A stretch of 64,000 nucleotides of DNA from IMG/VR virus record IMGVR_UViG_3300048998_000202; one strand, written 5' to 3'. The notes beneath the pieces are model-generated. The model worked only from the letters and a program-made list of their open reading frames with translations, did not search any database and was not told the origin of the DNA. This DNA is from a virus (Duplodnaviria; Caudoviricetes). Shown in pieces: positions 1 to 52,392 of the stretch. Each line of letters opens with the position of its first letter. Position 1 is the first letter of the stretch. Position numbers and translations under genes: made by a program.

Positions 1-116
1 CCACCCGGAGGTGATCCCCTTCTCCCTGCCGTGCCTTACCCGGCCCTGCCTAGCCATGCCACACCGCACCACGCCCCGCAGGTCTTGACGTTATCAAGAC
101 CCTTCGGAGCCGTCAA
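1..116 (-). ncRNA. GGY-NN pentamer guide-like RNA unit A with own promoter (3' end runs off the window)
   Basis: Minus strand: TTGACG-17 nt-TAACGT, then caagacc-tgcGG and 10 perfect GGY-NN pentamers (ggcgt ggtgc ggtgt ggcat ggcta ggcag ggccg ggtaa ggcac ggcag), then the start of a GC hairpin. Confidence 0.8.
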
Positions 117-120
117 TGAC

Positions 121-248
121 GAAGGGGCCCTCCGTAGAGGACCCCTTCTCCTATGCCAAACCTAGCCATACCCTACCCTGCCACGCCAAACCTAGCCAAG
201 CCATGCCCTGCAAGACTTGACTCTGTCAGCTCCTACGGCATCTGTCAA
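121..248 (-). ncRNA. GGY-NN pentamer guide-like RNA unit B
   Basis: TTGACA-17 nt-CAGAGT promoter, leader caagtcttgcAG, 11 perfect GGY-NN pentamers (207-153) and terminator hairpin GAAGGGGTCCTC-tacg-GAGGGCCCCTTC. Confidence 0.82.
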
Positions 249-253
249 CGACG

Positions 254-353
254 GAGGGGCCCCACCGTAGTGGAGCCCCTCTCCCATGCCCGGCCTTACC
301 CAGCCCTGCCTTGCCTCACCTCGGCCAGCCGTACCGAGACCTTGACTGTATCA
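254..353 (-). ncRNA. GGY-NN pentamer guide-like RNA unit C
   Basis: TGATACAGTCA box just after the stop codon of the 357-1226 gene, 10 pentamers (335-286, one variant gccga) and hairpin GAGGGGCTCCAC-tacg-GTGGGGCCCCTC. Confidence 0.78.
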
Positions 354-356
354 GGA

Positions 357-1226
357 TCAGTAGAACCGGGACCAGTACCGGGGCCGCGCCGCCACCGAGC
401 CCGCCATGCGGGTAGGCCCGTACCTGCCGTAGACGCCGCCCGAGATCAGGACGGCCGGGCGTCCGAGACCCATCTGGCTGATCTTGAAGACATCGAGCTG
501 GGACTTGGCGGCCTGCTCCTCCTCCATGAGGACGTCCCGCCAGCGCTGGACGTAGTCCCGGCGGTCCAGTCGGGAGACGTTGCCGGAGCCCTGGAACATG
601 GGCTGCTCGGTGTAGGAGCGGATCAGGTGCTTGAGGGTCTCGATCCAGGTCATGGCCTCCAGCAGCGGGCCCCACTGGGGATAGGGGAACTGCGCTCCCC
701 CGTCGCCGTCCACGGTGAAGGTCTGGAAGGGCTGCGCGATGGTGTTCATGCGCCCGAGCGCGATGCGCATCAGTTCGGCGATCCGGCCCCGGCCGAACTT
801 CGACTGGACGTAGGTCGTCAGGTTGGGGCCGCCACCTGGGGAGTCGATGGTGTCGGCGATGCGGACCATGACGCGCTCGATGATGTCTTTCATCGGGACC
901 ACCAGGCCGTCGTACGACGGGGCGGCCGGGCCGATCTCGATGCCGGACTCGTAGTACTCCTGCTGACCGGTCAGCAGGTATGTCCAGGCCAGGGTGTAGG
1001 AGCCCGGGACGGAGGTCTCCACGCTGTTGAAGGTCGCCGAGTAGTCGCCGGTCGCGTTGTGGGTGGCCAGCCGGGAGAAGATCTCGTTGCCGGTGTTCTC
1101 GGAGACCATGGTGAGGGTGACCCCGGCGTCGGCATCTATCGGGACCTGGTTCTGGAGGATCTTCAGTCCCACCACGTCCACGGCGTACTGCGATACGTAC
1201 TGCCGATCGTTCCAGTACAAGGCCAT
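357..1226 (-). CDS. virion structural protein, probable head-tail connector/neck
   Basis: 289-aa ORF with phage-like codon usage, in the late operon downstream of the capsid genes. Function inferred from position only. Confidence 0.55.
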   Translation of the reverse strand: MALYWNDRQYVSQYAVDVVGLKILQNQVPIDADAGVTLTMVSENTGNEIFSRLATHNATGDYSATFNSVETSVPGSYTLAWTYLLTGQQEYYESGIEIGPAAPSYDGLVVPMKDIIERVMVRIADTIDSPGGGPNLTTYVQSKFGRGRIAELMRIALGRMNTIAQPFQTFTVDGDGGAQFPYPQWGPLLEAMTWIETLKHLIRSYTEQPMFQGSGNVSRLDRRDYVQRWRDVLMEEEQAAKSQLDVFKISQMGLGRPAVLISGGVYGRYGPTRMAGSVAARPRYWSRFY

Positions 1227-1235
1227 GGTCGAGTC

Positions 1236-1889
1236 CTAGCGGTCGGTCGCGTTGACGAACATGGCCAGGATGCGGCTGGTGCTCAGCGTCATGGAAGAGC
1301 CGGTGGGCGAAGCGGTGATCTGGATGCCGACCGAGTGGGAGCCCGCGCTGATGTTGCGTACGCCCAGGACCGGGATGGTCGTGGACCAGTGACCGGTGCC
1401 GAAGGTGGAGTTGTCGGGCCAGTTGGTCAGGACGTACTCCGCCATGGTGGCGTCGAAGGCCGACACCGCGCCGTCGATCAGGATGCGGTTGGTACCGCCG
1501 ATGAAGCCCCGGGTGGGCAGGCTGAACTCGTTGGTACCGATGCACAGCAGGCTACCGGGCCGGTTCACGGTGAAAGTACCGATGGTGTAGCTGACGACGG
1601 TGTTGTGGTTGATGGTGGCGTTGGGCCGCAGAGCGCCCCACCACACGGCCGGGCCGTAGAGCATCTCGCGCCAGGTGGTGCCGTTCCACATCAGGGTACG
1701 GCGGGTGTCCGTCTCGATGATCTGCATGCCCGTCTGGCCCGCACCCCAGGACGGCCGGGTGGTGGACGTGCATATCCAGTCGCCCGTGTGCTGGTCCAGG
1801 ATGTTGAAGTTCTGGACGAAGTCGGTCCGCAGGAACGGGTCCGACCCGTCGGGGATCTTGATCCCCATGTGCTGGCTGGTGGTGGACAT
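1236..1889 (-). CDS. virion structural protein (minor tail/fiber-like)
   Basis: 217-aa ORF with N-terminal 'MGIKIPDGSDPF..NFNILD', typical of fiber attachment segments, and a beta-rich C-terminus. Preceded by the late promoter motif. Confidence 0.55.
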   Translation of the reverse strand: MSTTSQHMGIKIPDGSDPFLRTDFVQNFNILDQHTGDWICTSTTRPSWGAGQTGMQIIETDTRRTLMWNGTTWREMLYGPAVWWGALRPNATINHNTVVSYTIGTFTVNRPGSLLCIGTNEFSLPTRGFIGGTNRILIDGAVSAFDATMAEYVLTNWPDNSTFGTGHWSTTIPVLGVRNISAGSHSVGIQITASPTGSSMTLSTSRILAMFVNATDR

Positions 1890-2029
1890 CCGCTCCCGAT
1901 CCTCTCGTGGTGACCTTCACCCCTTCCGGGGCGACCTGCGGTAGCCGACAGGACCGGTCGGGGCGACTACCAATAGATGTGCGAGGAGCCCCGTACGTCA
2001 GGTTCGTACGGGGCTCCTCACGTCCGACA

Positions 2030-3415
2030 TCAGGAAACGGTGACGTTGCCCGACGCGGCGGAGGTGGTCGTGGAGACCGATCCCTGGGCCCCCACGGTGG
2101 CGGTGTCCACATGGCCGGTGGTCAGCGCGGTGAAGTCGTTGCTCAAGACGTTGCCCGCCACGGTGTGGACGGTGGTGTCCTGGCCTCCCAGGGTGACGAT
2201 GTAGTTGATCGGGGCGCCCGAGGACGGTGCGGACCACACGACGTGGATGGTGCCCGCCGACGGGCTGGTGACCGTCGGGGCCGCCGGGGCGGTGGGCTTG
2301 CCGAAGGCCGCCGAGGCACTGGAGGTGGCGTTGGCGACCGCGCCGTTGGAAGTGACCGTGGCCGTGATGGCGGTGGCGCTGGCGACTCCGGTGAAGGTGG
2401 TCGTCAGAGTCCCGGCGGCCACGGTCTTGGTCTGGCCGGACGACAGGGTCACCGTGTAGCTGAGCACGGTGCCGCCGGACGTCGGGGCGACCCAGGTGGC
2501 CACCACGCCGCCCACGGTGGCGTTGCCGGACAGGACGACGCTCGTGGGGGCGCCGGGGCGACCCTGGAGGCCGGAGCCCGACTTGATGGTGCCGTCGGCG
2601 CCGTAGATGGGGTTCTGGGCCCAGTAGGGGTCCAGGCCGCCGGGCTTGCCGACGTCCGGCTCATCCGGGTTGTACGGCGTCACGGAGGCCGAGGCGGTGC
2701 CCAGCGGGCCGTTGCCGTTGCGGTTCCGGGCCAGCACCTGGAAGGTGTACGCCTGGTCGGGGACCAGGTTCTGGACGGTGACGGTGGTGACGCCCCGGCC
2801 GGTGTAGGTGGTGCCGCCGGTCGAGCCGACCACCACGTATCCCAGGACGGGCGCGGTGGCATGCGGGTCGGCCACGGTGGCCCACGTGACGCTCGCCGTA
2901 CGGGCTCCGGCGGCCACGGTGGGGGTACCGGCGGGGGCGACCGGTACGAGGGCGCTGACGGGCCCGATGGCACCGATGTTGCCCGACTCCAGGGTGCCGC
3001 TGAGGTTCTGGGCGTAGTCGGTGCGCACCGATCCGTCGGAGATCGGGGTGTCGGTCCGAGTGGTGTCGGCGCCTCCTGCGGCGCCCACGAGGCCGACGGT
3101 GAGGGTCGGGGCCCGGTACGCCTGGGTGACTCCGGAGGTCTGGGGCCAGCCGATCATGCCGGTCTCGACGGTGCCCGCCAGCAGAGGCGGAGGGGTCGGG
3201 GTGTACGGGCCGTTGGTGGCGTTGGTCGCTGAGGTGTCCGGAGTGCCGGTCAGCGTGCCACCGGTCTGGACGTTGCTGCCGCCGCCGCCAGCGCCGGAGT
3301 TGGCGGTGTCGGTGTTGGACGCGCGGTCTTGGGTTCCACGGGGGGCAGCACCGGCATTTCCGGTCACACCCTCGGTGTCGATCTCCTGACCCGAGTATCC
3401 GGGCGGTGTGGTCAT
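2030..3415 (-). CDS. fibronectin type III repeat virion protein
   Basis: Three Fn3-like modules (e.g. VTWATV..VLGYVV..VQNLVPDQAYTFQVLARNRNGNGP; WVAPTSGGTVLSYTVT; WSAPSSGAPINYIVT). Confidence 0.8.
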   Translation of the reverse strand: MTTPPGYSGQEIDTEGVTGNAGAAPRGTQDRASNTDTANSGAGGGGSNVQTGGTLTGTPDTSATNATNGPYTPTPPPLLAGTVETGMIGWPQTSGVTQAYRAPTLTVGLVGAAGGADTTRTDTPISDGSVRTDYAQNLSGTLESGNIGAIGPVSALVPVAPAGTPTVAAGARTASVTWATVADPHATAPVLGYVVVGSTGGTTYTGRGVTTVTVQNLVPDQAYTFQVLARNRNGNGPLGTASASVTPYNPDEPDVGKPGGLDPYWAQNPIYGADGTIKSGSGLQGRPGAPTSVVLSGNATVGGVVATWVAPTSGGTVLSYTVTLSSGQTKTVAAGTLTTTFTGVASATAITATVTSNGAVANATSSASAAFGKPTAPAAPTVTSPSAGTIHVVWSAPSSGAPINYIVTLGGQDTTVHTVAGNVLSNDFTALTTGHVDTATVGAQGSVSTTTSAASGNVTVS

Positions 3416-3443
3416 GGTGCTGCTCCCTCGGGGACTCGGTGTA

Positions 3444-4064
3444 CTACTGCTTTGCGGCGGTGGAGGACGAGGTGGTCTTCTTCGCTGCGGTCTTCTTGGC
3501 GGGAGTCGCTTCGCGGCGCTCCTGGCCCTTCTGGGCGGCTACGGCCTCGTCCTGCGGGTTGGAGGCCCCGGCGATGACCTGCTGCCCGTAGGACTCGCTC
3601 TGGCCGCTGTCAGGGACCTGGGTGATTCCGGCGTCCACTCCGCTGGCGTCCCCCGCCACGTTGGGACTGCGGGGAGCGTCCGGGGCCGCCCCGGTGTCGT
3701 TCCCCGGCGCGATGATGTTCCCGCCGTGCTCGGGGACGCCGCCGTTTTCGACGGTCTGCTGCGGGAGGTTCTGGGCGACGGCGGTGGCCTCCTCGTGCTT
3801 GAGCAGGCCGCGCACCTCCTCCACGATGTCGGCGGTGCGCTCGCGCACGACGGCCTCCACCTTGGCCACGACCCGTTCCACATCACCGAAGATGCGAGTG
3901 GTGCCGGACACGCGCTCGTTGTGGCCGCCGCCGGTACCGGAGGTCTCCAGGGTGCCGGTCATGGCCGTAGGGTCCGGGATGTGATCGACGGATTCCTGGT
4001 AGCCAGTGGCCGCCGGGGAGTCCTCCGGGATCTCGGAGTTCTGGTTCTCAGGCTGTTCTGTCAT
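3444..4064 (-). CDS. hypothetical acidic/low-complexity late protein with Lys/Ala-rich tail
   Basis: 206-aa ORF with RBS, ending in PAKKTAAKKT. Confidence 0.6.
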   Translation of the reverse strand: MTEQPENQNSEIPEDSPAATGYQESVDHIPDPTAMTGTLETSGTGGGHNERVSGTTRIFGDVERVVAKVEAVVRERTADIVEEVRGLLKHEEATAVAQNLPQQTVENGGVPEHGGNIIAPGNDTGAAPDAPRSPNVAGDASGVDAGITQVPDSGQSESYGQQVIAGASNPQDEAVAAQKGQERREATPAKKTAAKKTTSSSTAAKQ

Positions 4065-4077
4065 GTGTCGCCCCTTC

Positions 4078-4614
4078 TCAGTCGCGCTCGCGGTTGCCGA
4101 TGTTCACTCGGACCCACTTGGTCTTGGCCTGCTCGCCCGTGGTGTCCACCTCCGGCACGTACTGAAGCGCGAGCCCCTTGTGGCGGGGGCACAGCGGGGG
4201 GATGTCCTTCAGCAGCTTCTCGGAGATGGCCACGGCTTCTTCACAGGTACCGATGCCCCGCGAATCCGGGCCGACGCAGAACGCGCTGACGGTGTCCCGG
4301 CTGGTCGGCTTCTCGATCGTTGCCTGGATGTTCTCCTTGGCCCCGTCCTGACGCCGACGGAAGGCGTCCACCTGACGGCTCAGAGCCTCGACCACCTCGG
4401 GGTCGGACTCCTCGTCCATCAGCTCCACGACGCCACGGGCCAGGGCGCGCTTGAACGCGACCGACTCCAGGACGGCTTCGGGGATGTACTGGATGTCGTC
4501 TCCGGAGGGGTCGCCGCTGGCGGCCCACTCCACGGAGTGGGTCCCCTTGACGTCCGAGGCGAGGACGGTGACGCCGTCCATCAGGTTGCGGGCAACGATC
4601 GAGCCGACAGGCAT
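4078..4614 (-). CDS. hypothetical late protein with C-terminal Cys/His (Zn) motif
   Basis: 178-aa ORF behind the late promoter motif at 4642-4676. Confidence 0.6.
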   Translation of the reverse strand: MPVGSIVARNLMDGVTVLASDVKGTHSVEWAASGDPSGDDIQYIPEAVLESVAFKRALARGVVELMDEESDPEVVEALSRQVDAFRRRQDGAKENIQATIEKPTSRDTVSAFCVGPDSRGIGTCEEAVAISEKLLKDIPPLCPRHKGLALQYVPEVDTTGEQAKTKWVRVNIGNRERD

Positions 4615-4855
4615 GAGGGTCTCCGTTCGTGAAGGTCTTCTCGTCCTTTACGCGGAGTCGTCACGGGTCCAACAGGAAAGGCCCCGGCCCGGGGGTACCG
4701 GGGCCAGGGCCTTTCGTGGACGATCGGCGCCACGACTCAGGTCCGTGGGGGACGGAAGGAATCGGCGCCGCCTCGTGCACGGGGAGCGTGGCACGGTGGG
4801 GTAGACGCTGTCAAGGCGAATGTGTTCCACTGGAGAGATGGAAGATCAGCACACG

Positions 4856-5077
4856 ATGCAGACAGACACCCCCACCGACGACCTGAAGCTGTACGGGATC
4901 TCCGAGCTGGCGGATCGCTGGAAGGTCTCTAAGCAGCGGGCTGACGAGATCGCCTCCAAGCGCCTCCCACAGCCCCTCACGCTCAAGATGGGCCGCATCT
5001 GGACAGAACTCCAGGTGGAGAACTTCGAGAGAGGGTGGGTCCGTAAGACGGGGCGTCACATCGTCCCCAGGACTTGA
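4856..5077 (+). CDS. small AlpA/excisionase-like HTH DNA-binding protein
   Basis: LYGISELADRWKVSKQRADEI...LPQP..LKMGRIW is an AlpA-like wHTH pattern. Start could be 4838. Lies directly upstream of the RNA array. Confidence 0.7.
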   Translation: MQTDTPTDDLKLYGISELADRWKVSKQRADEIASKRLPQPLTLKMGRIWTELQVENFERGWVRKTGRHIVPRT

Positions 5078-5163
5078 TATCGTCAGGGGTTACTGGGCTC
5101 GGCAGGGCTAGGTAGGGCAGGACTGGGCACGGCATGGGAGGGGCTTCCTACGGGGAGCCCCTC
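5075..5163 (+). ncRNA. GGY-NN guide-like RNA unit D
   Basis: TGATATCGTCA box, pentamers 5096-5135 (one variant gactg) and hairpin GAGGGGCTTCC-tacg-GGGAGCCCCTC. Confidence 0.75.
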
Positions 5164-5168
5164 AGCCG

Positions 5169-5262
5169 TTGACAGGCGCTCTTGGGAGTGACAGAGTCAG
5201 GTCTTGCAGGACCACACGTGGGCGTGTGGAGAAGGGGCGCTTCTTCCAGGAGGCGCCCCTTC
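5169..5262 (+). ncRNA. array unit E: same promoter/leader but hairpin body instead of pentamers
   Basis: TTGACA-17-CAGAGT, caggtcttgcag, hairpin CCACACG-tggg-CGTGTGG and terminator GAAGGGGCGC..GCGCCCCTTC. Confidence 0.6.
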
Positions 5263-5267
5263 GTCGT

Positions 5268-5422
5268 TTGACAGACCGGCACGGGGGTGACAAAGTCAGG
5301 TCTTGCATGATGGGAAGGACACACGGTTGGTTTCTGAGGCCGGAACCGTGTGGATGCGATCGGCCCTCAAGGCCGTGGACGCGTCCGAAGGCCCCCTCTG
5401 AAGATTCCTGGAGGGGGCCTTC
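5268..5422 (+). ncRNA. array unit F: same promoter/leader, two-hairpin structured RNA
   Basis: TTGACA-17-CAAAGT, caggtcttgca, stems CACACGGTT/AACCGTGTG and GGATGCG..CGGCC/GGCCG..CGCGTCC, then terminator GAAGGCCCCCTC/GAGGGGGCCTTC. Confidence 0.6.
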
Positions 5423-5428
5423 GTTCGT

Positions 5429-5557
5429 TTGACCGGACGACATTAGGGCTGACAGGGTCAGTTCTTACAGGGCACCGTCTGGTTGGGCACGGTAAGGCAT
5501 GGTGGGGTAAGGCACGGCTGGGCAGGGGAGGGCGACCATCTTCGGATGGTCGCCCTC
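5429..5557 (+). ncRNA. GGY-NN guide-like RNA unit G
   Basis: TTGACC-18-CAGGGT, 11 pentamers at 5471-5525 (one variant cgtct) and a UUCG-capped terminator. Confidence 0.8.
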
Positions 5558-5563
5558 AGCCGT

Positions 5564-5706
5564 TTGACAGGTGCGGGTGGAGCTGACAGAGTCAAGTCTT
5601 GCAGGGCCGGGCCCGGTAGGGCGTGGTTTGGCGTGGTGTGGTTGGGCAACGCATGGCATGGCATGGCAGGGGAAAGGCCCCAGGATTTTAAAATCCTGGG
5701 GCCTTT
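5564..5706 (+). ncRNA. GGY-NN guide-like RNA unit H
   Basis: TTGACA-17-CAGAGT, 13 pentamers at 5605-5669 (one variant cgcat) and terminator GAAAGGCCCCAGGATTTTAAAATCCTGGGGCCTTTC. Confidence 0.8.
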
Positions 5707-5708
5707 CG

Positions 5709-5841
5709 TTACGCCCTGAAGGAACTGATAGAGTCATGGTCTCGGCAGGCCGAGGCTAGGTAAGGCACGGCGGGGCAAGGCACCGCCCGGTAGGGCAAGG
5801 CATGGGGAAGGCCCCCTCGGATTCTCCCGAGGGGGCCTTCC
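5709..5841 (+). ncRNA. GGY-NN guide-like RNA unit I (decodes to major capsid gene motif)
   Basis: TGATAGAGTCA box, 12 pentamers at 5744-5803 (variants gccga, cgccc) and a terminator convergent with the capsid gene. Confidence 0.82.
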
Positions 5842-5866
5842 GTTGTCCTGAAGCGACTACTCTCCG

Positions 5867-6856
5867 TCACGCCTTGGTGATCGTCGCGATGCCCCTGGGG
5901 TTCAAAATGGACATATTGACCATTTCGTCAAATACCCATCCCTTCCAGAAGGCTTCGACCATGTGGTTCTCTTCCACGTCCAAACTGTACAGAACGGGGA
6001 AAACGCCCAAGAAGTTGGGCTCCGGGGTGAGGAAGACCTTGCCCTGCGGGACGATGATCGACCGCTGGATCTGGAACTCGCCGAACGAGGTGATGGTCTC
6101 GCCCGCGACGACCCGGTCCTTGAAGGCCCAGCCCGTCTGGTTGATGTCCCACCGGTACAGGTCCCGGAAGTCGAACGGGTTGATCAGGATCCGCGCCGAC
6201 TGGAGCTCGTGCATGTCCGTCATGGCGACGGCCGAGTACAGCGAGCCCGGCGTCAGGTAGCCCGACGCCTCGGTGATGTTGTGGTTCGGGGTGACCGTGT
6301 GGTCCGGGCGGGTGGCGTAGTCCGTCAGCGCCGCCTGGAGCAGTACGAGCAGCCGGGTGTCCTCCTGCTTGAGGATCGCCTGCTTGGTCTCGTCCTGGGC
6401 CTGCTCGACTGCGTTGATACGCAGGTAGAACAGGTCCTCCTTGCGGATCGCGGGGCGCGAGGCGATACGGAAGAACCGCACCGGAACGCGCTTGCCCTCG
6501 AACGGAGTCACACGGACTTCGCCCTCGGTGCCGGACATGATGTACGCCTGGCCCAGGTCGTCCCACACGTCGTACTCGACGGGGGTACCCGGGGTGACCG
6601 GGTCCTCCACGAGCACGTTGCGGGTGATGCCCTGGTAGCGGAGCTTGAGCTGGATGGGACCGACCATCCCGACGCCCAGACGGCGGATGCCGCCGGTCTC
6701 GTCGGAGAGGATCAGCGCCATCTTCTTGACCTTCGCCTCATGCGTGAGAGGCGCGGCCTTCTCCCGGCGGGCGAGGATCGCGGAGGCGTAGTCGTCGGAC
6801 TTCTTGGCCACACGGCCACGGAGCGACGAGGTTGCGGCGAGAGTCTGAGTCGGCAT
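5867..6856 (-). CDS. major capsid protein (HK97 fold)
   Basis: 329 aa with capsid-like sequence (GPIQLKLRYQGITRNVLVED, QAILKQEDTRL, C-terminal ILNPRGIATI). Follows scaffold and decoration genes. Confidence 0.85.
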   Translation of the reverse strand: MPTQTLAATSSLRGRVAKKSDDYASAILARREKAAPLTHEAKVKKMALILSDETGGIRRLGVGMVGPIQLKLRYQGITRNVLVEDPVTPGTPVEYDVWDDLGQAYIMSGTEGEVRVTPFEGKRVPVRFFRIASRPAIRKEDLFYLRINAVEQAQDETKQAILKQEDTRLLVLLQAALTDYATRPDHTVTPNHNITEASGYLTPGSLYSAVAMTDMHELQSARILINPFDFRDLYRWDINQTGWAFKDRVVAGETITSFGEFQIQRSIIVPQGKVFLTPEPNFLGVFPVLYSLDVEENHMVEAFWKGWVFDEMVNMSILNPRGIATITKA

Positions 6857-8571: not shown

Positions 8572-11500
8572 TCAGACAGGCATCGGCAGCGGCGTTTCGC
8601 CCTGCTCTTCGGCGGGGCTCATGAGCTGCCCCTGACCACAGTTGGGGCAGACGTCGCCCGCCTGGACTCCGTCGGGGGTGGCCTCTCCCGTCGGCGGCAG
8701 GATCGAGGTGTCCATGTCGACGCTCACCGGGTTGGTGGCGTCGGCCTGGAATCCGCACGCCGGACATTCGAGGTCCGGTACGCCATCGCCGGGGGTACCG
8801 GGGACTCCCTGGCCCGCGTCCGGGTTGGGGATCTGTCCGTCGGTGTCCAGGTCCTGAGGTCCGGCCGGGCCCTCGGGACCTGTCGGCTGGCCGGGTCCCT
8901 GGGGCGTGTCGGGCCCTGGGGTGAACGGCTGGCCGTCACTGCTGACCGCGTCGGCCGGGAGGGCCTGCGGTCCGATCGGCATTCCGTCGGGTCCGACCAT
9001 CATCTGCTGGCCGGGCTGCTGGAGCGGCTGTCCGTCGGGTCCGAGCATGGCCGGGTCGACTGGTGCCCCCAGCTCGTTCGGATCCTGCGGCTGGCCGTCC
9101 GGGCCGAGCGCGTTGGGATCCTGGGGCGAGTCTCCGCCCATCGGGTCGCCGCCCGGCTGTACCTCGGCCTGTACTTCACCGGGGAGTGTGCCGGGCTGCT
9201 GACCCTGGTCCGCAGCGTCGGGGTTGACGGGGTTGCCGTTCTCGTCCAGGGCCGCCGGGTCGGCCGGGTTTTCGACCGGCTGTCCGTCAGGTCCGATCTG
9301 ATTGGGGTTGGCCGGATCCTGGAACTCTGCGACGTCCTTCCGCAGGTCCATCTGTCGGGCCTTCTCCAGGTCGGGGTCCTGGAACATCTTGGGGGGTGCG
9401 ACGTAGCTGCACACCTGGCAGGTGGCGCCGTCGAAGGTGTCGCGGTCACCGCACACCGGGCAGGCGTCCTCGCGCAGGGTGTCCACGTCCTCGGGGGCCT
9501 TCGTCTCGCCGTAGGCCAGTTTGCGGCCCAGCAGGCGACGAGAATCCTCGGGGGGAGTAGCCCCCCGGCCCGTCTGGAGACCCTTGCCGTTCTCGGTGGC
9601 GAACGGGGAGTGCACCGGGGCTGGGTCGTAATGGGCCGCAGCGTGATCCAGCATGGCGGAGGCCACTCCTCGTCGCTTGAGGTTGTCGTCCACACCGATC
9701 CAGTTGATATGGCCAGCGGGCTTGACGTGCCAGGAGTCCGCGTGGCCATTCATGCCGCAGTGGTCGCAGTGCTGATCGGGCCGGAAGTCGTCAGGTCCCT
9801 TCTCGTCCCAGTACTCCTCGCGCTTCTTGGTCCACTCCAGCTTCCCGACCTGCTGCCTGTCGGGAGTGTGGGCGCGCAGCACGTGGTACTTGTAGTCCGG
9901 TCCACCGTGGTACGTGAAGTGCAGGCCCTCCGGCAGATCACCACTGGCCCCGGCCACATGGGAGTTCGCCGGGGGCTGGTGCAGGTCCGGATTGTGCTCG
10001 CGGCTGAGGTCCTGCCAGGTCTTGCGCTGGTTGCGCTGCACGGTGTTGCGGCCCTTCTGACCGCCTGAGGTGTCACCCTCGGCGTTCAGGCGCTGCCGGG
10101 CGAGCCAGGTGACGGCCTGCACCTCGTGCGGGGGCACTTCGCGGCCCTCACGGTCGGAGATGACCGCTGCGGCCTTGCGGTAGTGGTTGGCCACGACCTC
10201 GTAGTGCTTGCGGTTCTGCGAAGGGAAGCCCTTGACGTCGTCGGCGTTCAGACGGCGCCCGGCGGCGACGGACAGGGCATGACGATCCACGACGACCTTG
10301 TCCGAAGGCTCCTTGGGCTTTCCTGCCGCCGCGTCCTCAGGGCTCTGGGGCTTGTTACCGCCGTGCTCGATCAGGGAGGCGAAGTCCTGCGTCTTGGGCC
10401 CCTTGAGGGCTTCCTGGTGGTTCATGCCGTCCATGACCTTCTGGGCGGCGTTGGCGTGACTGCCCATCACCATGATGCCCTCGCCCTTGCCGACGGCCCG
10501 CTGCTCGTGGAAGGCCCGCGCGGCGTTGTGCTGGTTGGCCCACCAGCCCTGCTGCGGGGAGTAGGCGGAGAGGACGCCTGCGCCCTTGTGGGCGGCTTCG
10601 GCGTCGCTCTTGATGCGGGGATCCAGTTTGGCGATGGACTTGGCCACCAGGTGGGCGTCGGGGTACCAGCGTTTGCCCTGCGCCTTCTCCTCGCTGGTGG
10701 CCTGGTCCCAGTGGTCCACGACGTGGTGGTGGGACAGGCCCATCTCCTTGAACCACGGATGGTCCTCGGGTGGCGTGGCCGCCGCACCCTCGGCCATCAG
10801 ATCGGCCAGGGTGACGCGGGAGCCGGTGGCGGCAATCTGCCTCACCACGGAGTCCGGGATCTCCTCCGGAGTGGGGTACGACTTCGAACGCGCCCTGTGG
10901 GTGGTGACGAAGTGGCCGTCACCGTCCTGCTTGAGACCGACCTCGGCGAAACGCGGGTCCTTCTTGGCGGCCTCGAACATCCGGTCCTGGGCGTACCCGG
11001 AGCCCTCGGGAGTCTTCCCGGGGTCTTTGGCCTTGGGCGGCCAGTTGGTGGCGCGTGCCCCGTGATAGGGAGCCTTCTCGCCGTATTCATCCGGGGTGTC
11101 GGAGAGGGGGGACTTCGCCACGTAGGCGTGGATCTTCTTGATCCCTGCGGCCTTGGCCGCCTCGGTCCGGTGGTGGCCGTCGGCGACCTGGAAGACGCCG
11201 TGCCGGTGTACGAGGACGACCGGTGGCATCTGCTCGGGGTTGTCCCGGTACCCCTCGGCAGCGTGCTGGACGCGGTAGTCACCGGCCTCGTGGCGCTTGT
11301 GGTCGATGGCGCTCGGGCTGACCATCGCGTGATGGAAGGTCAGGTCATCGATCGAACGCTCGTTGGCGTCAGGGTCGTCGGGGGTGGAGTGGGCCAAGTT
11401 GCTGGCTGCCCATCCGATCATCTCCCCGTCGGCGTGCTCGGCCCGATCGCCGTGGATCTCGGGGTCCCCGTAGATCTCCGGGTGCCGCTCGCCTACCTCG

Positions 11501-12327
11501 TCCCAGGACAGGCCCCGCCCGGCAGTGGTGTTGATGGAGTCAAGACTTGCGGTACTCTGGATCTCGCTCGGCTCGGCTCGGATTGGCTTGGTTGGGCTTG
11601 GCACGGCAAGGTACGGCATGGCATGGGTGGCGGTCTCTCCGGAGGCCGCCACAGCCATTTTCATACCCCGGTCATCGATCCCGGTGAAAAACGCCGTCGG
11701 ATCCGCCGGGGGCTCCACCAGCAGCGAGTTCTCGAAAAACCGCAATCCGTAGCAGGTCTCACGGATGATCTCGCCGATCTTCTGCCCGGAAGCCGTCGTC
11801 CGGTAAAGCGTCATTCCCTTTGATCCAGGGATGTGGGCGCAGTATTCGGCAGGGGTAGTGGCCTTGTTGCCACAGGCGGAGCAGACGGAGAAGGCGACGT
11901 CGGTGCCCATGCTGGTTCTGGCGATGTTGCCGTTCATGATCTCGGCGGCCAGCTTGGGAAAGCGCAGCGCATCGACCTCTTGGAGGACCTCGACCCACCA
12001 GTCCCGGCTGCCGTCGCGGTTGCTGTCCTTGTGCAAAACCGCGTCGATGATCACACCACGGGCGCGCTTGTGATCTTCGTTCGCGTGATTGACGAAGACG
12101 GGCTTACCGATAAACGTCCGGTATCCCTTCTCCAGTTCCTCAGCGGGGAACTCGTCGAAGTTGTCGTTGCACCGGCTGGAGATGGCGCGGGAGCGCACGT
12201 ACAGGTAGCCGGGGCGCACCTCATACGAAAAGTGGTGCCGGTGGGCGAAGCGGCGCAGCTCACGGGCACCCGCGTCCGTGGGGACGAGGGCCTTGGTCAT
12301 GATCTGGGCGCTCGCGTACTTGAGCAT
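8572..12327 (-). CDS. multidomain head protein: prohead protease-like N-terminus + ParB/Srx-like + HhH-glycosylase-like + GNAT + Zn ribbons
   Basis: N-terminal GKPVFVNH..ARGVIIDA..TSMG..CSACGN..YCAHI..FFENSLLVEPPADPTA. ParB-like MPPVVLV..ADGHHR. WY..SAYSPQ..GPK..VVVDRHA..VQAVTW. GNAT RRGVASAML. Several CxxC pairs. Confidence 0.7.
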   Translation of the reverse strand: MLKYASAQIMTKALVPTDAGARELRRFAHRHHFSYEVRPGYLYVRSRAISSRCNDNFDEFPAEELEKGYRTFIGKPVFVNHANEDHKRARGVIIDAVLHKDSNRDGSRDWWVEVLQEVDALRFPKLAAEIMNGNIARTSMGTDVAFSVCSACGNKATTPAEYCAHIPGSKGMTLYRTTASGQKIGEIIRETCYGLRFFENSLLVEPPADPTAFFTGIDDRGMKMAVAASGETATHAMPYLAVPSPTKPIRAEPSEIQSTASLDSINTTAGRGLSWDEVGERHPEIYGDPEIHGDRAEHADGEMIGWAASNLAHSTPDDPDANERSIDDLTFHHAMVSPSAIDHKRHEAGDYRVQHAAEGYRDNPEQMPPVVLVHRHGVFQVADGHHRTEAAKAAGIKKIHAYVAKSPLSDTPDEYGEKAPYHGARATNWPPKAKDPGKTPEGSGYAQDRMFEAAKKDPRFAEVGLKQDGDGHFVTTHRARSKSYPTPEEIPDSVVRQIAATGSRVTLADLMAEGAAATPPEDHPWFKEMGLSHHHVVDHWDQATSEEKAQGKRWYPDAHLVAKSIAKLDPRIKSDAEAAHKGAGVLSAYSPQQGWWANQHNAARAFHEQRAVGKGEGIMVMGSHANAAQKVMDGMNHQEALKGPKTQDFASLIEHGGNKPQSPEDAAAGKPKEPSDKVVVDRHALSVAAGRRLNADDVKGFPSQNRKHYEVVANHYRKAAAVISDREGREVPPHEVQAVTWLARQRLNAEGDTSGGQKGRNTVQRNQRKTWQDLSREHNPDLHQPPANSHVAGASGDLPEGLHFTYHGGPDYKYHVLRAHTPDRQQVGKLEWTKKREEYWDEKGPDDFRPDQHCDHCGMNGHADSWHVKPAGHINWIGVDDNLKRRGVASAMLDHAAAHYDPAPVHSPFATENGKGLQTGRGATPPEDSRRLLGRKLAYGETKAPEDVDTLREDACPVCGDRDTFDGATCQVCSYVAPPKMFQDPDLEKARQMDLRKDVAEFQDPANPNQIGPDGQPVENPADPAALDENGNPVNPDAADQGQQPGTLPGEVQAEVQPGGDPMGGDSPQDPNALGPDGQPQDPNELGAPVDPAMLGPDGQPLQQPGQQMMVGPDGMPIGPQALPADAVSSDGQPFTPGPDTPQGPGQPTGPEGPAGPQDLDTDGQIPNPDAGQGVPGTPGDGVPDLECPACGFQADATNPVSVDMDTSILPPTGEATPDGVQAGDVCPNCGQGQLMSPAEEQGETPLPMPV
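11532..11652 (+). ncRNA. GGY-NN guide-like RNA unit J, antisense inside the protease gene
   Basis: TGATGGAGTCA box, leader caagacttgcgg, pentamers at 11570-11624 (one variant ggatt) and terminator GTGGCGGTCTC-tccg-GAGGCCGCCAC. Confidence 0.78.
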
Positions 12328-23246: not shown

Positions 23247-25361
23247 TCAGACCTCCTGAAGTCCGGAGGCGTAGAACGTCTCGGGGTCGACCTCGATGTG
23301 GCGGCGTACGCCGACCACCTTGGGGTCGGCGAACTTGCCGATGGGGTCCCACTCGCTCAGCGGCACGTCCTCGGGACGCTCGCGCGGCTGGTGATGCTGG
23401 CGGGCGGCCGTACGGGTGCGTTCGGACTGCCGGAAGAGTGCGGCGGGCTTGGGCATCCCCGCGCGCATCTCGTCGGACTCGGGCGGGCGCTGGCTGCCCT
23501 CTGCGGGGGCCTCACCGCCGGTCTCGGTGCCGTCCACGGGGGTGGCGGGCATGCCGGGCATGGGGACGCCTCCGGCGGGCTGGTCGCCCATGAGGTCCAT
23601 CTGGGTGGGGGCGAGGTTGGGGGTGGGGACGACGTCATCGGTGCCGAGCATGGGGGCGCGCATGCCCTCCATGGCGGGGTTGGCGGGAGCCATGGCCTGC
23701 TGGGCTTGGGGCTGGAAGTCCGTCTTGAGGTCGAGGGGGATGGGCAGGCCCTTGTCCTTGAGGCCCTGGTAGATCTTTTTGCGGGTCTCCTGCTCGGCGA
23801 TGGCGAGCTGGACCTGTTCGTCCTGGGTGCGTTCCACCTCGTCGTCGAAGTCGATGCCGGAGGCGGTGAGGCGGGTCTTCATCGAGACGGGGACGCCTGC
23901 GGCACGCAGGGCCTCGAAGAACTCGCGTTCGGCGGACTCGTCGGTGAGGGACATGGTCTGCATGACCAGCTCGGGGACGAGGAGCTTGGGCTGCTCTACG
24001 ATGCGCTCGTTGCCGGTCTCCTCGTCGATTTCGAGGATCTCTTCCATCTTGACGTAGCGCTTGCCGTTGCGTTCGTCGTAGTCGTAGTGCTCCTGGGCTT
24101 CGGCGACGACCAGGGCGCGCTGGTGGAAGTGGCGCTTGATCATGTCCTGGTAGGTGGTGAGGAGCTGGGAGACCAGGTCGCGGTTGAGGGCGTCGGCGGC
24201 GTAGGTCTCGCCGGAGGAGGCGCCGTTGAGCATGGTCTGGGACAGGCCGAAGGACTGGAGTATGCGATCTTCCAGGCGTTCGAAGTCGGCCGTCATGTCG
24301 GGCATGTTCTCCCGGCCGAAGACGGGTTCCATGGTGACGGCGAAGTTGTGGACGAGGGCGCGGAAGTCGGCGGCGAGGGCGGCGTCCAGGGACTCCATGA
24401 ACTCTTCGAGGTCGTCCGGGGTGGGGATCCAGGGGACCTGGGTGCCGAGGTCGGTGGCGGAGGCGCCGAGTTTGACCAGGACCAGAGGGGTGTAGAGGCG
24501 GTCGGCGATGGCGTCCTGGGCGGCGTTGAGCATCTCTTCCTGCATGACGGCTCGCATGGCGCGCATGAGGATGGGGATGCCGCGTTTGGAGAAGGTGTCG
24601 GCCTTGAACTTCATCTGGCGGAGCAGGATGTTGCTGACGGGCATCATGTCGTCGGCCCCGGCGTAGCGGCTGAGCTCGGGGTAGACCTGCATGAGCTTCT
24701 CGTACTCCCAGGCGGGGGAGCGCTTTTGCATGACCTCGCGGATCGTCTCCGGGAGGCGTATGAGGAAGCGGGGGTCCTTGAGGAAGGCGCTGCGCTGGAC
24801 CATGACGTCGTCGGGGTTGAGGAGTTCTTCGTCGTCCCAGATGCCCAGGGACTCGTTGAAGGTGGCGAAGGGCCATGCTTCGCCGACGGTCCAGTATTCG
24901 CGGCCGACGTCGAGGAGGAATTCGTCGTAGTTGAGGCCGTCTTCGGTGAAGAAGAGGTCTTCGTAGAACTGGGTGACCTGTTCGTCCTTGCAGCGCAGTT
25001 CCATGCCGAGCAGGGGGTACTTGGTGTAGATGTCGATGCATGAGGCGATGACGGGGTGGGTCTGGTAGAGCAGGCGGCAGTAGGTGCGGAGTTGCCGGAG
25101 CTGGGATTCGTCGTCGACCTCGTAGGGGAGGTTGTTCTGCTTCCAGTAGAACAGCGGGTCGCGGGGGCGGCCGGTGGCGAAGGCGGTGCTGGGGGTGGCT
25201 GCGGATCCTTGCTTGCGCATGGAGACGCGGCGGTTGGCCTTCATCTGCTGGGCTTCTGGGGTGCCGTCGGTTTGTGCTGTTGCCCCTCGGGTCATGGCCT
25301 TGCCGAGGCGCGCGAAGGCGGCCTGCTGGTAGGCGTCGGGCTCGGAGGGGGTGTCAGGCAC
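23247..25361 (-). CDS. portal protein
   Basis: 704 aa with portal-like helical segments (CRLLYQTHPVIASCIDIYTKYPL; EYWTVGEAWPF; RGIPILMRA; YTPLVLVKLG). Upstream of the head genes. Confidence 0.75.
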   Translation of the reverse strand: MPDTPSEPDAYQQAAFARLGKAMTRGATAQTDGTPEAQQMKANRRVSMRKQGSAATPSTAFATGRPRDPLFYWKQNNLPYEVDDESQLRQLRTYCRLLYQTHPVIASCIDIYTKYPLLGMELRCKDEQVTQFYEDLFFTEDGLNYDEFLLDVGREYWTVGEAWPFATFNESLGIWDDEELLNPDDVMVQRSAFLKDPRFLIRLPETIREVMQKRSPAWEYEKLMQVYPELSRYAGADDMMPVSNILLRQMKFKADTFSKRGIPILMRAMRAVMQEEMLNAAQDAIADRLYTPLVLVKLGASATDLGTQVPWIPTPDDLEEFMESLDAALAADFRALVHNFAVTMEPVFGRENMPDMTADFERLEDRILQSFGLSQTMLNGASSGETYAADALNRDLVSQLLTTYQDMIKRHFHQRALVVAEAQEHYDYDERNGKRYVKMEEILEIDEETGNERIVEQPKLLVPELVMQTMSLTDESAEREFFEALRAAGVPVSMKTRLTASGIDFDDEVERTQDEQVQLAIAEQETRKKIYQGLKDKGLPIPLDLKTDFQPQAQQAMAPANPAMEGMRAPMLGTDDVVPTPNLAPTQMDLMGDQPAGGVPMPGMPATPVDGTETGGEAPAEGSQRPPESDEMRAGMPKPAALFRQSERTRTAARQHHQPRERPEDVPLSEWDPIGKFADPKVVGVRRHIEVDPETFYASGLQEV

Positions 25362-25656
25362 GGTTGGGCTCCTGGGGGACGATGGCTCGGATGGTGTTGC
25401 CGAAGCAGCGGCGGGCGGGCCAGGGGACGCTGGTGGTGTGTTCCAGGGCGGTGAGCAGGCGGTAGTTGTCTGCGCAGGTGCCGCAGAGGTAGATGTGCTC
25501 CCCCGGCTGCTGGGGCACTTCCACGCGATGGACGATCATGGGCCGGGGGCTGTGGAACTTGCTTCCCTGGCAGTCGTGGTCGTGGGTGGCGGGGGTGCCG
25601 GGCAGGATGGCCGTGGGAGTGTCCTGGATGAGCTGGAGGACCTCCCGGGTGATCAC
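25354..25656 (-). CDS. hypothetical Zn-finger protein
   Basis: HDC..H and LCGTC motifs; coupled to the portal gene. Confidence 0.55.
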   Translation of the reverse strand: MITREVLQLIQDTPTAILPGTPATHDHDCQGSKFHSPRPMIVHRVEVPQQPGEHIYLCGTCADNYRLLTALEHTTSVPWPARRCFGNTIRAIVPQEPNRA

Positions 25657-25832
25657 TGCGGGGTTTCTCCTGCCTGGCGCCGGATGGGCTTGGGGCTGAG
25701 TACTCCTCTGCGGAGGAGTTCGTTGGCCTCGGGGTCGTCGGGGGTGAATTGGACGGCTTCACCTCGGGTGTGGGTGGCGGTGGCGTCGGTGTAGTCCACG
25801 AGGACGTAGAGGGTGCGGGGGGTGTCGGTCAT
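25653..25832 (-). CDS. hypothetical 59-aa protein
   Basis: MTDTPRTLYVLVDY... overlapping both neighbours by 4 bp. Confidence 0.55.
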   Translation of the reverse strand: MTDTPRTLYVLVDYTDATATHTRGEAVQFTPDDPEANELLRRGVLSPKPIRRQAGETPQ

Positions 25833-26485
25833 CGTCGGCCTTCCCGGATGCGGTCGAGCACGGTGTCCCGCTGGGCTGGGGTGGCGTGCTTGATGGCGAG
25901 GTGGCGGAGGTAGTTGTCCCAGTTCATGGGGGTTCCGCTGGCGGTGTGGAGGGTGGAGCCCTTGGCGAAGGGGGGTGCGTTGCCGCCGGAGTCGTCGGGG
26001 TCTTCTTCGGGGTCGTCGGGGTCTTGGTCGTCGCCGAAGGGGTTGGCGTCGTCTTGCTGGTCGTCGCCGGGGGGTATGCCGCCTGCCATGGGGTCGGCCA
26101 TGGGGTCTTGGCCGGGGGCGGCTGGGGGGCCGCCGATCTGGCCGGGCATGCCGGGGACCTGCATGGGCATGCCGTCGATGGTCTGGGGGAAGGCCGGGAA
26201 CTGCGGCTGGACCTGGACGGTGAAGGTGGTGTGGCAGTACTCGCATTCGGTGGTGCGGTCGCTGCGGGCGATGACCTGTCCGGAGCCGCAGAAGGGGCAG
26301 TGGAAGATCGTGGCGCCGTCGCCGGAGTCGTGGGCGGTCTTCTGGTGGGCCACGTGGGGTTCCTTCCGCTCCCGGGCTACTGCTTGGTTGCAGCCCTGGC
26401 AGACCATGCGGCCGTCGTCCAGGCGGGTGCGGGGGATGTGGGGGGATGCTTTGCCCCCGCATCGGTCGCAGAATCTGTCGGCCAC
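25829..26485 (-). CDS. Zn-ribbon protein with Pro/acidic linker
   Basis: CDRC, CQGC, CPFC and CEYC pairs. Late promoter at 26496-26530. Confidence 0.6.
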   Translation of the reverse strand: MADRFCDRCGGKASPHIPRTRLDDGRMVCQGCNQAVARERKEPHVAHQKTAHDSGDGATIFHCPFCGSGQVIARSDRTTECEYCHTTFTVQVQPQFPAFPQTIDGMPMQVPGMPGQIGGPPAAPGQDPMADPMAGGIPPGDDQQDDANPFGDDQDPDDPEEDPDDSGGNAPPFAKGSTLHTASGTPMNWDNYLRHLAIKHATPAQRDTVLDRIREGRR

Positions 26486-42718: not shown

Positions 42719-42875
42719 GAAACCTCCAGGGTCAGAATCTCTGGCGGGACCAAGCGTACTCACAGGATTGCCGGAGCGCTACCCAACTACCTTTATGGGT
42801 TGGCCTCTTGCAGCGCTCATCGTTTCAGCACACGAAAAGGCCCCGAGGACTAGGTGTCCTCGGGGCCTTTTGTCG

Positions 42876-42949
42876 TAGCGCGGACCAGATTCGAACTGGC
42901 GACCTGTGGGTTATGAGCCCACCGAGCTACCGAACTGCTCCACCGCGCG
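42876..42949 (-). tRNA. tRNA-fMet (CAT)
   Basis: Cloverleaf with anticodon loop CTCATAA, unpaired C1 and GGG/CCC in the anticodon stem. CTGACA-17-TATCGT promoter upstream. Confidence 0.92.
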
Positions 42950-42981
42950 GCTGCCCACGATAGCCGACACGGGAAGCGGTG

Positions 42982-50084: not shown

Positions 50085-50254
50085 GCGGTCTCCTGGCGGG
50101 TGAGATTTTAAAAAGATGTGACTGGACTCTCCGACGGCTCTTGCGAGCCACGCACCCACATGGGGCTGGATATCTCTCGGGGTGGGAGCTTGCCTCCAGA
50201 TGTCCCGAGCCTTACCAGCGCCCATCCCATATCCAGTCTGGTGGGTCCCTAGCG

Positions 50255-50328
50255 CTCCTCCGGCAGGGTTCGAACCTGCGACCGTCGCCTTAACAGGGCG
50301 CTGCTCTGGCCAACTGAGCTACGGAGGA
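50255..50328 (-). tRNA. tRNA-Asn (GTT)
   Basis: Acceptor TCCTCCG/CGGAGGA, anticodon loop CTGTTAA and T-loop TTCGAAC. Confidence 0.92.
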
Positions 50329-51969: not shown

Positions 51970-52319
51970 CAGAGGACGACCGTCTGGAAGGTCTCCACGG
52001 CGGTGTCGTGGACGCCCCAGTCACCGTTGCTGTCCGAGGAGACCAGGTACATCCCCACGACCCGGTCGGGGTTCTTCTGGGCGTCGCCCCAGGACAGGTC
52101 GATCCGGTGGATGGCCAGGTCCTTCTGGAAACCGATGATCCGGACGACGTGGCCCCCGTGGATCTCCGGGAACTCCACGCTGCCCTTGTTGTCGGCGTGG
52201 ATCGGGTACGGGAGCTGGGTGCCCACGTGACCGTCATCGGTGATCATGTCGATGCGCGGGGCGGGCTGAATCTTGAACATGGGCATGGATACTCCCTGGT
52301 CCGACGACTATCTCTGGCG

Positions 52320-52392
52320 TACCCCCGACCGGATTCGAACCGGCACCTCCGGATTGAGAATCCGACGGGACTGCCATTGCCTCCACAGGGGC
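52320..52392 (-). tRNA. tRNA-Glu (CTC)
   Basis: Anticodon loop TTCTCAA, T-arm GCCGG-TTCGAAT-CCGGT and acceptor GCCCCTG/CGGGGGT. Confidence 0.85.

Follow-up and report, generated by a model that had tools for sequence, protein, structure and literature searches.

Predicted VIPR guide RNAs of a Myrna-like Streptomyces phage and their candidate targets, including a host defence island

The subject of this analysis is a set of four short guide cassettes, C, D, G and H, in a 64,000-nucleotide (nt) stretch of the phage record IMGVR_UViG_3300048998_000202 (Duplodnaviria; Caudoviricetes); we refer to this whole stretch as the window. From sequence and layout, we consider it highly probable that the four cassettes encode vrRNAs, the guide RNAs of a VIPR system, in a Myrna-like Streptomyces myovirus, with the expression of the cassettes predicted from promoter-like boxes and hairpins. 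We place them in this class because their GGY-NN units and invariable tail match the published definition of a vrRNA. This kind of system is already known; what is new is the variant, with its Streptomyces host, individually promoted guides, hairpin tail and dispersed cassettes, together with evidence that this phage's guides, C and D included, aim at host defence genes.

VIPR is a CRISPR-like, RNA-guided DNA-silencing system that was described in 2026 (bioRxiv 10.64898/2026.04.26.720920; 10.64898/2026.04.26.720927). In these two studies, Vipr is a minimal RAMP protein that polymerises on a vrRNA of 9-16 GGY-NN units, and the resulting filament hides each GGY and presents the NN dinucleotides, which pair with double-stranded DNA but pass over every third base of the target (the 1-nt-skip rule). 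Published vrRNAs are discrete small RNAs of ~100 nt that co-purify with Vipr, a protein of ~20 kDa with an RRM core, a G-loop and a thumb, and VIPR types I-VII are told apart by Vipr phylogeny and vap family. Binding of Vipr on either strand silences transcription, and a protospacer adjacent motif (PAM) is not needed. The same studies called natural targets at an NN match of at least 80%, found these targets to be satellites, prophages and other VIPR loci, and reported that the R-loop of the E. coli system grows 3'-to-5'. Published vrRNA sets converge on one locus (bioRxiv 10.64898/2026.04.26.720920; 10.64898/2026.04.26.720927; 10.64898/2026.10.15.759431). A preliminary description of the window, made from its letters alone, had read each NN as two target bases followed by one skipped base; this code is the published 1-nt-skip rule, and it works for guides E, B and A of the same phage (see below). 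Its decodings of C, D, G and H were reproduced letter for letter by a script, with the extra C-terminal residue in its strings for D, G and H corresponding to the leader unit (TACTG, TACAG and TGCAG, respectively).

Ten short cassettes have a promoter-like box in common, in which TTGACA and (T/C)A(G/C)(A/G)GT are 17-18 nt apart, and after it a leader whose last letters are CTTGCAG; eight of the ten bear 8-13 GGY-NN pentamers and a perfect GC hairpin. These eight guide cassettes occupy three sites of the window: 1-350 on the minus strand (A, B, C), 5075-5850 on the plus strand (D, G, H, E) and 11532-11660 on the plus strand (J). Counted by script over the 86 units of the eight cassettes, G stands at position 1 in 83 (97%) and at position 2 in 83 (97%), C or T stands at position 3 in 85 (99%), and positions 4-5 vary. 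The cassettes are as follows.

Cassette C, 254-350, minus strand: -10-like box TACAGT at 345-350, leader unit at 336-340, ten GGY-NN units at 286-335 (the last GGCAT), 12-bp hairpin at 254-281.
Cassette D, 5075-5163, plus strand: -10-like box at 5075-5083, leader unit TACTG at 5091-5095, eight units at 5096-5135 (the last GGCAT), 11-bp hairpin at 5138-5163.
Cassette G, 5429-5557, plus strand: TTGACC at 5429-5434, 18-nt spacer, CAGGGT at 5453-5458, leader unit TACAG at 5466-5470, eleven units at 5471-5525 (the last GGCAG), 13-bp hairpin at 5528-5557.
Cassette H, 5564-5707, plus strand: TTGACA at 5564-5569, 17-nt spacer, CAGAGT at 5587-5592, leader unit TGCAG at 5600-5604, thirteen units at 5605-5669 (the last GGCAG), 16-bp hairpin at 5672-5707.
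Sister cassettes A and B, 1-250, minus strand: units at 26-75 (A) and 153-207 (B), a tandem set shared with C, delimited by cassette alignment and unit parsing.
Sister cassette E (u9), 5710-5850, plus strand: twelve units at 5744-5803, convergent with the major capsid gene (5867-6856, minus strand).
Sister cassette J (u10), 11532-11660, plus strand: eleven units at 11570-11624, antisense inside a 1251-residue open reading frame (ORF; 8572-12327, minus strand).

Every cassette has the same 3' end, a GGCA(T/G)-(G/A)GG motif followed by a perfect hairpin of 11-16 bp, and the fold of cassette C has a z-score of -3.3. A fourth cassette of the A/B/C set lies beyond the window start, and the phage has at least nine separately promoted guides. 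A SigA-type promoter box would drive the transcription of each guide separately, giving an RNA of roughly 75-110 nt made up of a short conserved leader, 8-13 GGY-NN units, the invariant final GGCA(T/G) unit and a GC hairpin. If the system works like those solved from E. coli and Pseudomonas, one Vipr protomer would sit on each GGY and leave the NN exposed, and the dinucleotides would pair with double-stranded DNA by skipping each third target base, with the filament then blocking transcription.

The four guides agree with the published features of vrRNAs in several respects. Their unit counts (C, 10; D, 8, or 9 with the leader unit; G, 11; H, 13) fall in the range of 9-16, and the invariable 3' tail is structured, as a hairpin rather than the pseudoknot of the SUSP1 clade. 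Target matches of at least 80% of NN positions, above those of shuffled guides, were found for the sister guides E, B and A and, at a defence island, for C (18/22) and D (15/18); G and H had no such target in anything searched. No guide has a self-target at 80% or more within the 64-kb window, where the best self match is that of E on the phage's own capsid gene (site 5979-6016; only 20/26, or 77%).

To score candidate targets, we placed the NNx pattern of each guide at every position of both strands and compared the result with permuted guides, a design also used in bioRxiv 10.64898/2026.10.15.759431. Guide E matched the capsid gene of Mycobacterium phage Myrna at 23/26 nt, those of IMG/VR relatives at 22-23/26 and that of a 157-kb relative at 22/24, where the permutation maximum was 19. 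Together with the weaker match of E to the capsid gene of its own phage, this suggests that a few codon changes let the guide tell self from non-self. The best match of guide J was to the same gene family as the 1251-residue ORF that hosts it, with 18/24 on the phage's own gene (p about 0.04).

Guides B and A matched bacterial genes. Guide B spells PDILLTNYKML of Druantia druE, and its nine 5' dinucleotides (ILLTNYKML, searched with G/C wobble) had at least 120 exact matches (18/18 over 9 NN) in species genomes across Actinomycetota and other high-GC bacteria. Every one of these matches sits in an ORF of ~2000 residues reading PPDILLTNYKMLD, and the one matched ORF that was tested is the DruE of Druantia (PADLOC 1e-82; DEAD, Helicase_C and MZB domains). 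A search of 120 druE loci for sites of the other guides found none. Guide A matched 96 of 151 Streptomyces genomes at 0-2 mismatches (two of them at 0 mismatches), with ~150 matches against ~33 for the control; an exact 9-NN scan of IMG/VR with this guide found no match. The guide A matches read (F)RLY(M/L)TATP, and many are found at a distance of 1-5 kb from the two ends of linear chromosomes. Because of this telomere-proximal position, we infer that the targets of A are ttrA-like helicase genes. In a related phage, the orthologue of guide A keeps 7 NN while its pyrimidine (Y) positions change, indicating that selection acts on the NN. A profile test of guide peptides against hidden Markov models failed even on guide B, its positive control. 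In Streptomyces phage Frankenweenie (OQ921725.1), guide B has a partial match of 17/22 in a helicase-like motif at 42970-43001 (p about 0.007), and the same genome has an 8-unit GGY-NN tract at 96575-96614 on the minus strand.

These results bear on whether the pentamer tracts are guides at all. GG every 5 nt would fit both a protein-sponge RNA (TRAP-binding-like, a triplet plus spacer) and a G-quadruplex RNA, in which the NN would be neutral spacers. This is very improbable, as the agreement of guides E, B and A with conserved gene motifs, read through their NN, is far above chance, as NN are conserved between orthologous cassettes while Y varies, and as published VIPR biochemistry and structures explain the pattern. 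Given the VIPR papers and the targets of E, B and A, we dropped both the TRAP-like sponge and the G-quadruplex.

With the code working for the sister guides, we examined the matches of guides C and D. In the 151 Streptomyces genomes, guide C had 21 matches at up to 3 mismatches, 13 of which are one orthologous site. The best guide C site has 8 consecutive perfect NN (18/20 nt) and lies in a gene of ~1590 codons, where the NN fall on codon positions 1-2 and the peptide reads GF(H/Q)LFS(S/P)HV. The gene is TmtA-like (Tiamat; PADLOC 1.5e-40), encodes a sacsin-type ATPase domain followed by a DEAD/DEAH (SF2) helicase, and is common in Streptomyces and Kitasatospora. An independent genome-wide search with guide D gave 31 matches, 8 of them at one orthologous site, and in at least 5 genomes this site is 5.77 kb from the guide C site on the same contig. 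In nine loci chosen by guide C alone, the best score of guide D is 15/16 nt (permutation p = 0.004); with only its seven true units counted it is 14/14 (p = 0.0025), and none of 500 random guides was as good. A UvrD/GajB-like helicase gene (3.9e-26) has the guide D site at its 3' end, ~105 nt upstream of a DrmA gene (PADLOC 2.6e-242), and this UvrD-like gene adjoins the TmtA-like gene, so that the island has three genes: TmtA-like, UvrD/GajB-like and DrmA. With their sites 5.77 kb apart in one island, C and D would converge on one locus, as published vrRNA sets do. The preliminary description had recommended peptide-pattern and regex searches on both strands; its own decoding took one strand only, and the candidate site of D lies on the other.

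From these sequence matches, we lean towards reading C and D as anti-defence guides against one Streptomyces defence island. Several points weigh against this reading. Guide C alone is at background in the 151 genomes, with its 21 matches set against ~55 for the reversed-pattern control; ~1-3 chance matches with up to 2 mismatches are estimated for its search, and its peptide fits at most 8 of 11 positions in any of 120 TmtA-like proteins. The NN of guide D fall on codon positions 2-3 rather than 1-2, and its TA match needs the rare codon GTA, which is present in only 3 of the 9 loci. In addition, orthologous matches are not independent, and the co-localisation of C and D amounts to roughly one event. 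An 8-NN seed of guide C in an exact scan of IMG/VR gave 12 matches, all in contigs of at most 55% GC and with unconvincing extension, which is the chance level.

These points leave an unlikely but appreciable chance that all four are working VIPR guides and that the island matches of C and D are a coincidence, with the true targets of C and D, like those of G and H, being rival phages, satellites or plasmids outside the data searched. Such an account fits the published picture of VIPR as inter-phage warfare, in which the known targets are satellites, prophages and VIPR loci, and it fits guides E and J of this phage, which aim at structural genes of related phages. It is also in keeping with a guide C match count that does not exceed its reversed-pattern control, and with guide D being short and having its site in codon phase 2-3. 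However, it would have to explain why, in at least 5 genomes, the sites of two independently searched guides share one island at a distance of 5.77 kb, with p about 0.003 for D in the loci chosen by C. Furthermore, the target of B is clearly a host defence gene, and that of A is a helicase gene of a chromosome or plasmid, which places host genes in the guide repertoire of this phage.

The best sites also inform on which part of the RNA pairs. The preliminary description had noted GGCAT or GGCAG as the last pentamer of every guide and had taken it to be probably structural, and this agrees with our results. All eight cassettes of the window, like those of related phages, end in a GGCAT or GGCAG unit. 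For five guides (B, C, D, E and J) the alignment to the best target extends through this unit, and in each of them it is a mismatch, against a match rate of ~80-90% for the other units. Because it is conserved yet unpaired at the best sites while other units pair, the last unit GGCA(T/G) probably belongs to a 3' handle, not to the guide. At the other end, the dinucleotide derived from the leader is paired for guides B and E, and for C and D it is half-paired. The suggestion that the 5'-proximal dinucleotides should be weighted in target searches fits guide B, whose three 3' units are unpaired at its target, and the conserved 5' half of guide A; it is the opposite of the 3'-to-5' growth of the R-loop in the E. 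coli system.

Guides G and H were searched in the same manner, alongside C and D. In the window, the best matches of the four (C, 14/22; D, 14/18; G, 16/24; H, 18/28; 1-nt-skip, both strands) were all within the range of 200 guide permutations, in line with the earlier remark that none has a convincing match there. The four guides were likewise at null level in Myrna (165 kb) and four IMG/VR relatives, in five metagenome loci and a 181-kb piece of a Streptomyces phage-like contig, and in Frankenweenie (200 kb) and 22 kb of the 157-kb relative. Exact scans of IMG/VR with 10 NN of guide G and with 11 and 9 NN of guide H gave no match, and an 8-NN seed of guide G gave 38, all in contigs of at most 55% GC and with no convincing extension, which is the chance level. 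Among bacterial genomes, guide G had no match in 401 Actinomycetes or 151 Streptomyces genomes, and guide H had one match, as did its control, in 301 Actinomycetes genomes, and one in the 151 Streptomyces genomes (in a FAD-oxidoreductase motif). The 5' half of guide G had 2 matches against 1 for the control, one being in a UPF0182-like membrane protein gene, and the 5' half of guide H had 4 against ~19. The stray single matches of G and H are in housekeeping genes and occur at control rates. The druE loci and the defence island had no sites for G or H, and the flanks of the island had none for A, G or H.

The lack of a match above control for G and H in any collection searched weighs against our overall reading. 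The preliminary description had proposed that guides without matches above a shuffled background would be degenerate, or the code incomplete; C and D do have matches above it, and G and H so far do not. It is fairly improbable that some of the guides, G and H especially, are decayed, spare or decoy RNAs, either drifting recent duplicates or RNAs that soak up Vipr. Besides the null searches, one imperfect unit in each of C (GCCGA), D (GACTG), G (CGTCT) and H (CGCAT) would agree with decay, as would the three identical GGCAT units at the end of the H array. Yet G and H each have an intact promoter box, leader, GGY register and hairpin, and guide E also has imperfect units, which still pair in register with its capsid target. 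The searches, moreover, sampled a small part of actinophage and plasmid diversity. Most likely, G and H are intact guides with targets in rival phages, plasmids or rare defence or mobile genes outside the data searched.

The carrier of these cassettes is a large Myrna-like myovirus of Streptomyces. The window belongs to a phage of 66% GC whose major capsid protein is ~60% identical to that of Myrna and its relatives, and which also encodes a cement protein and a protease-like giant ORF; a megablast search of the window against phages gave no match. We assign the host to Streptomyces because of the target matches of guides E, B and A. A tail protein gene beside the VIPR site agrees with this host, as the only isolated phage with a homologue in the phage collection is a Streptomyces phage and further homologues are in Streptomyces assemblies. 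A 9-kb contig of the same phage has, in order, a 289-aa gene, ~580 nt of cassettes, and 192-aa, 196-aa and 587-aa genes. By their expected position, the genes of 192 and 196 aa, which lie a short way outside the window at its start, are the putative vipr and vap genes. This identification of vipr, a further point on which our overall reading is exposed, comes from the gene layout of the contig, as its DNA lies outside the window. Relatives that were reached through homologues of neighbouring genes do not have the insertion. We also considered as Vipr a 193-aa gene next to the array of a relative (G004) and rejected it, since its motifs read as a dCTP deaminase.

Several other features lie in or near the guide cassettes. 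Two pentamer-less cassettes of the 5075-5850 cluster, at 5160-5425 on the plus strand, have the same promoter box and hairpin terminators; one corresponds to a ~50-nt hairpin RNA and the other is ~110 nt and may contain a small ORF. Immediately 5' of the plus-strand guide cluster, and in its orientation, is an 85-aa ORF (4820-5077, plus strand) with no Pfam or PHROG match, whose product might regulate the cluster or serve it as an accessory protein. Cassette J leaves the frame of the protease-like ORF in which it lies antisense unbroken. An Rfam scan of the window found only three tRNAs.

tRNA-Met gene, 42875-42949, minus strand.
tRNA-Asn gene, 50254-50328, minus strand.
tRNA-Glu gene, 52319-52392, minus strand.

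In comparison with the Type II VIPR of Escherichia phage SUSP1 and of a Pseudomonas fulva prophage (bioRxiv 10.64898/2026.04.26.720920; 10.64898/2026.04.26.720927), the system has guides of ~100 nt built from 9-16 GGY-NN units, a pair of small neighbouring genes, and several tandem guides with others elsewhere. It also resembles them in 1-nt-skip matching with the skip mostly on wobble positions, in targets on either strand and in self-target matches below 80%. This likeness is known from the guide RNAs and gene layout. It differs from them in its Streptomyces host and Myrna-like myovirus carrier, in having a SigA-type promoter box for each guide, and in cassettes at three sites, one of which is antisense inside a gene. 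In place of the pseudoknot of the SUSP1 clade, the fixed GGCA(T/G) unit is followed by a plain GC hairpin. Finally, its candidate targets are not only rival elements, as they include druE, the TmtA-like/UvrD-like island and ttrA-like helicases.

Cassettes that lie away from vipr, here at 5075-5850 and 11532-11660, are also a feature of the solo vrRNAs of satellites and VIPR-null phages (bioRxiv 10.64898/2026.10.15.759431), and two relatives of this phage (G001 and G004) carry arrays with no vipr seen in their fragments. Unlike carriers of solo vrRNAs, this phage appears to carry its own vipr, which makes its dispersed cassettes probable additions to the guide set of a complete VIPR system rather than hijackers. 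The cassettes of related phages (L079, 640-1026; G004, 24731-26412 and 59529-59563; G001, 6562-6606) have the same promoters and terminators and almost entirely different NN; with no vipr seen nearby in the fragments compared, they may in part be solo vrRNAs.

VIPR resembles the crRNA-Cas7 filaments of Class 1 CRISPR systems in that a guide RNA is coated by a polymerising RAMP protein and a thumb interrupts the duplex at regular intervals, with a period of 5 nt of which 2 are paired in VIPR, and of 6 nt of which 5 are paired in CRISPR. In contrast to CRISPR, it has no CRISPR array, adaptation genes or PAM, and it silences rather than cleaves in the types characterised. If C, D and B work as we read them, host immunity would be disabled, as it is by phage anti-defence factors such as protein inhibitors and RNA anti-CRISPRs. 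Unlike these factors, the guides would act by RNA-guided transcriptional silencing of the defence genes themselves and would aim at conserved codon positions, covering many alleles. VIPR silencing of host defence genes is not described in bioRxiv 10.64898/2026.04.26.720920, 10.64898/2026.04.26.720927 or 10.64898/2026.10.15.759431.

Taking the guides together, we tentatively propose, as a reading that falls a little short of being probable, that the VIPR of this phage is mainly a programmable anti-defence weapon, with C and D directed against the TmtA-like/UvrD-like/DrmA island, B against druE, and G and H serving as further anti-defence or anti-rival guides. So far (2026), VIPR has been described only as a weapon between mobile elements, and the carrier here is a high-GC actinophage. 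If the proposal is true, VIPR would be the first known case of a virus turning off immunity genes of its host with an RNA-guided system, and phages could programme the silencing of host immune genes with RNAs of ~100 nt. With each guide directed at conserved sequence, a single one would cover many alleles of its host target, and the guide repertoire would be readable as a catalogue of the defences and rivals met by the phage.

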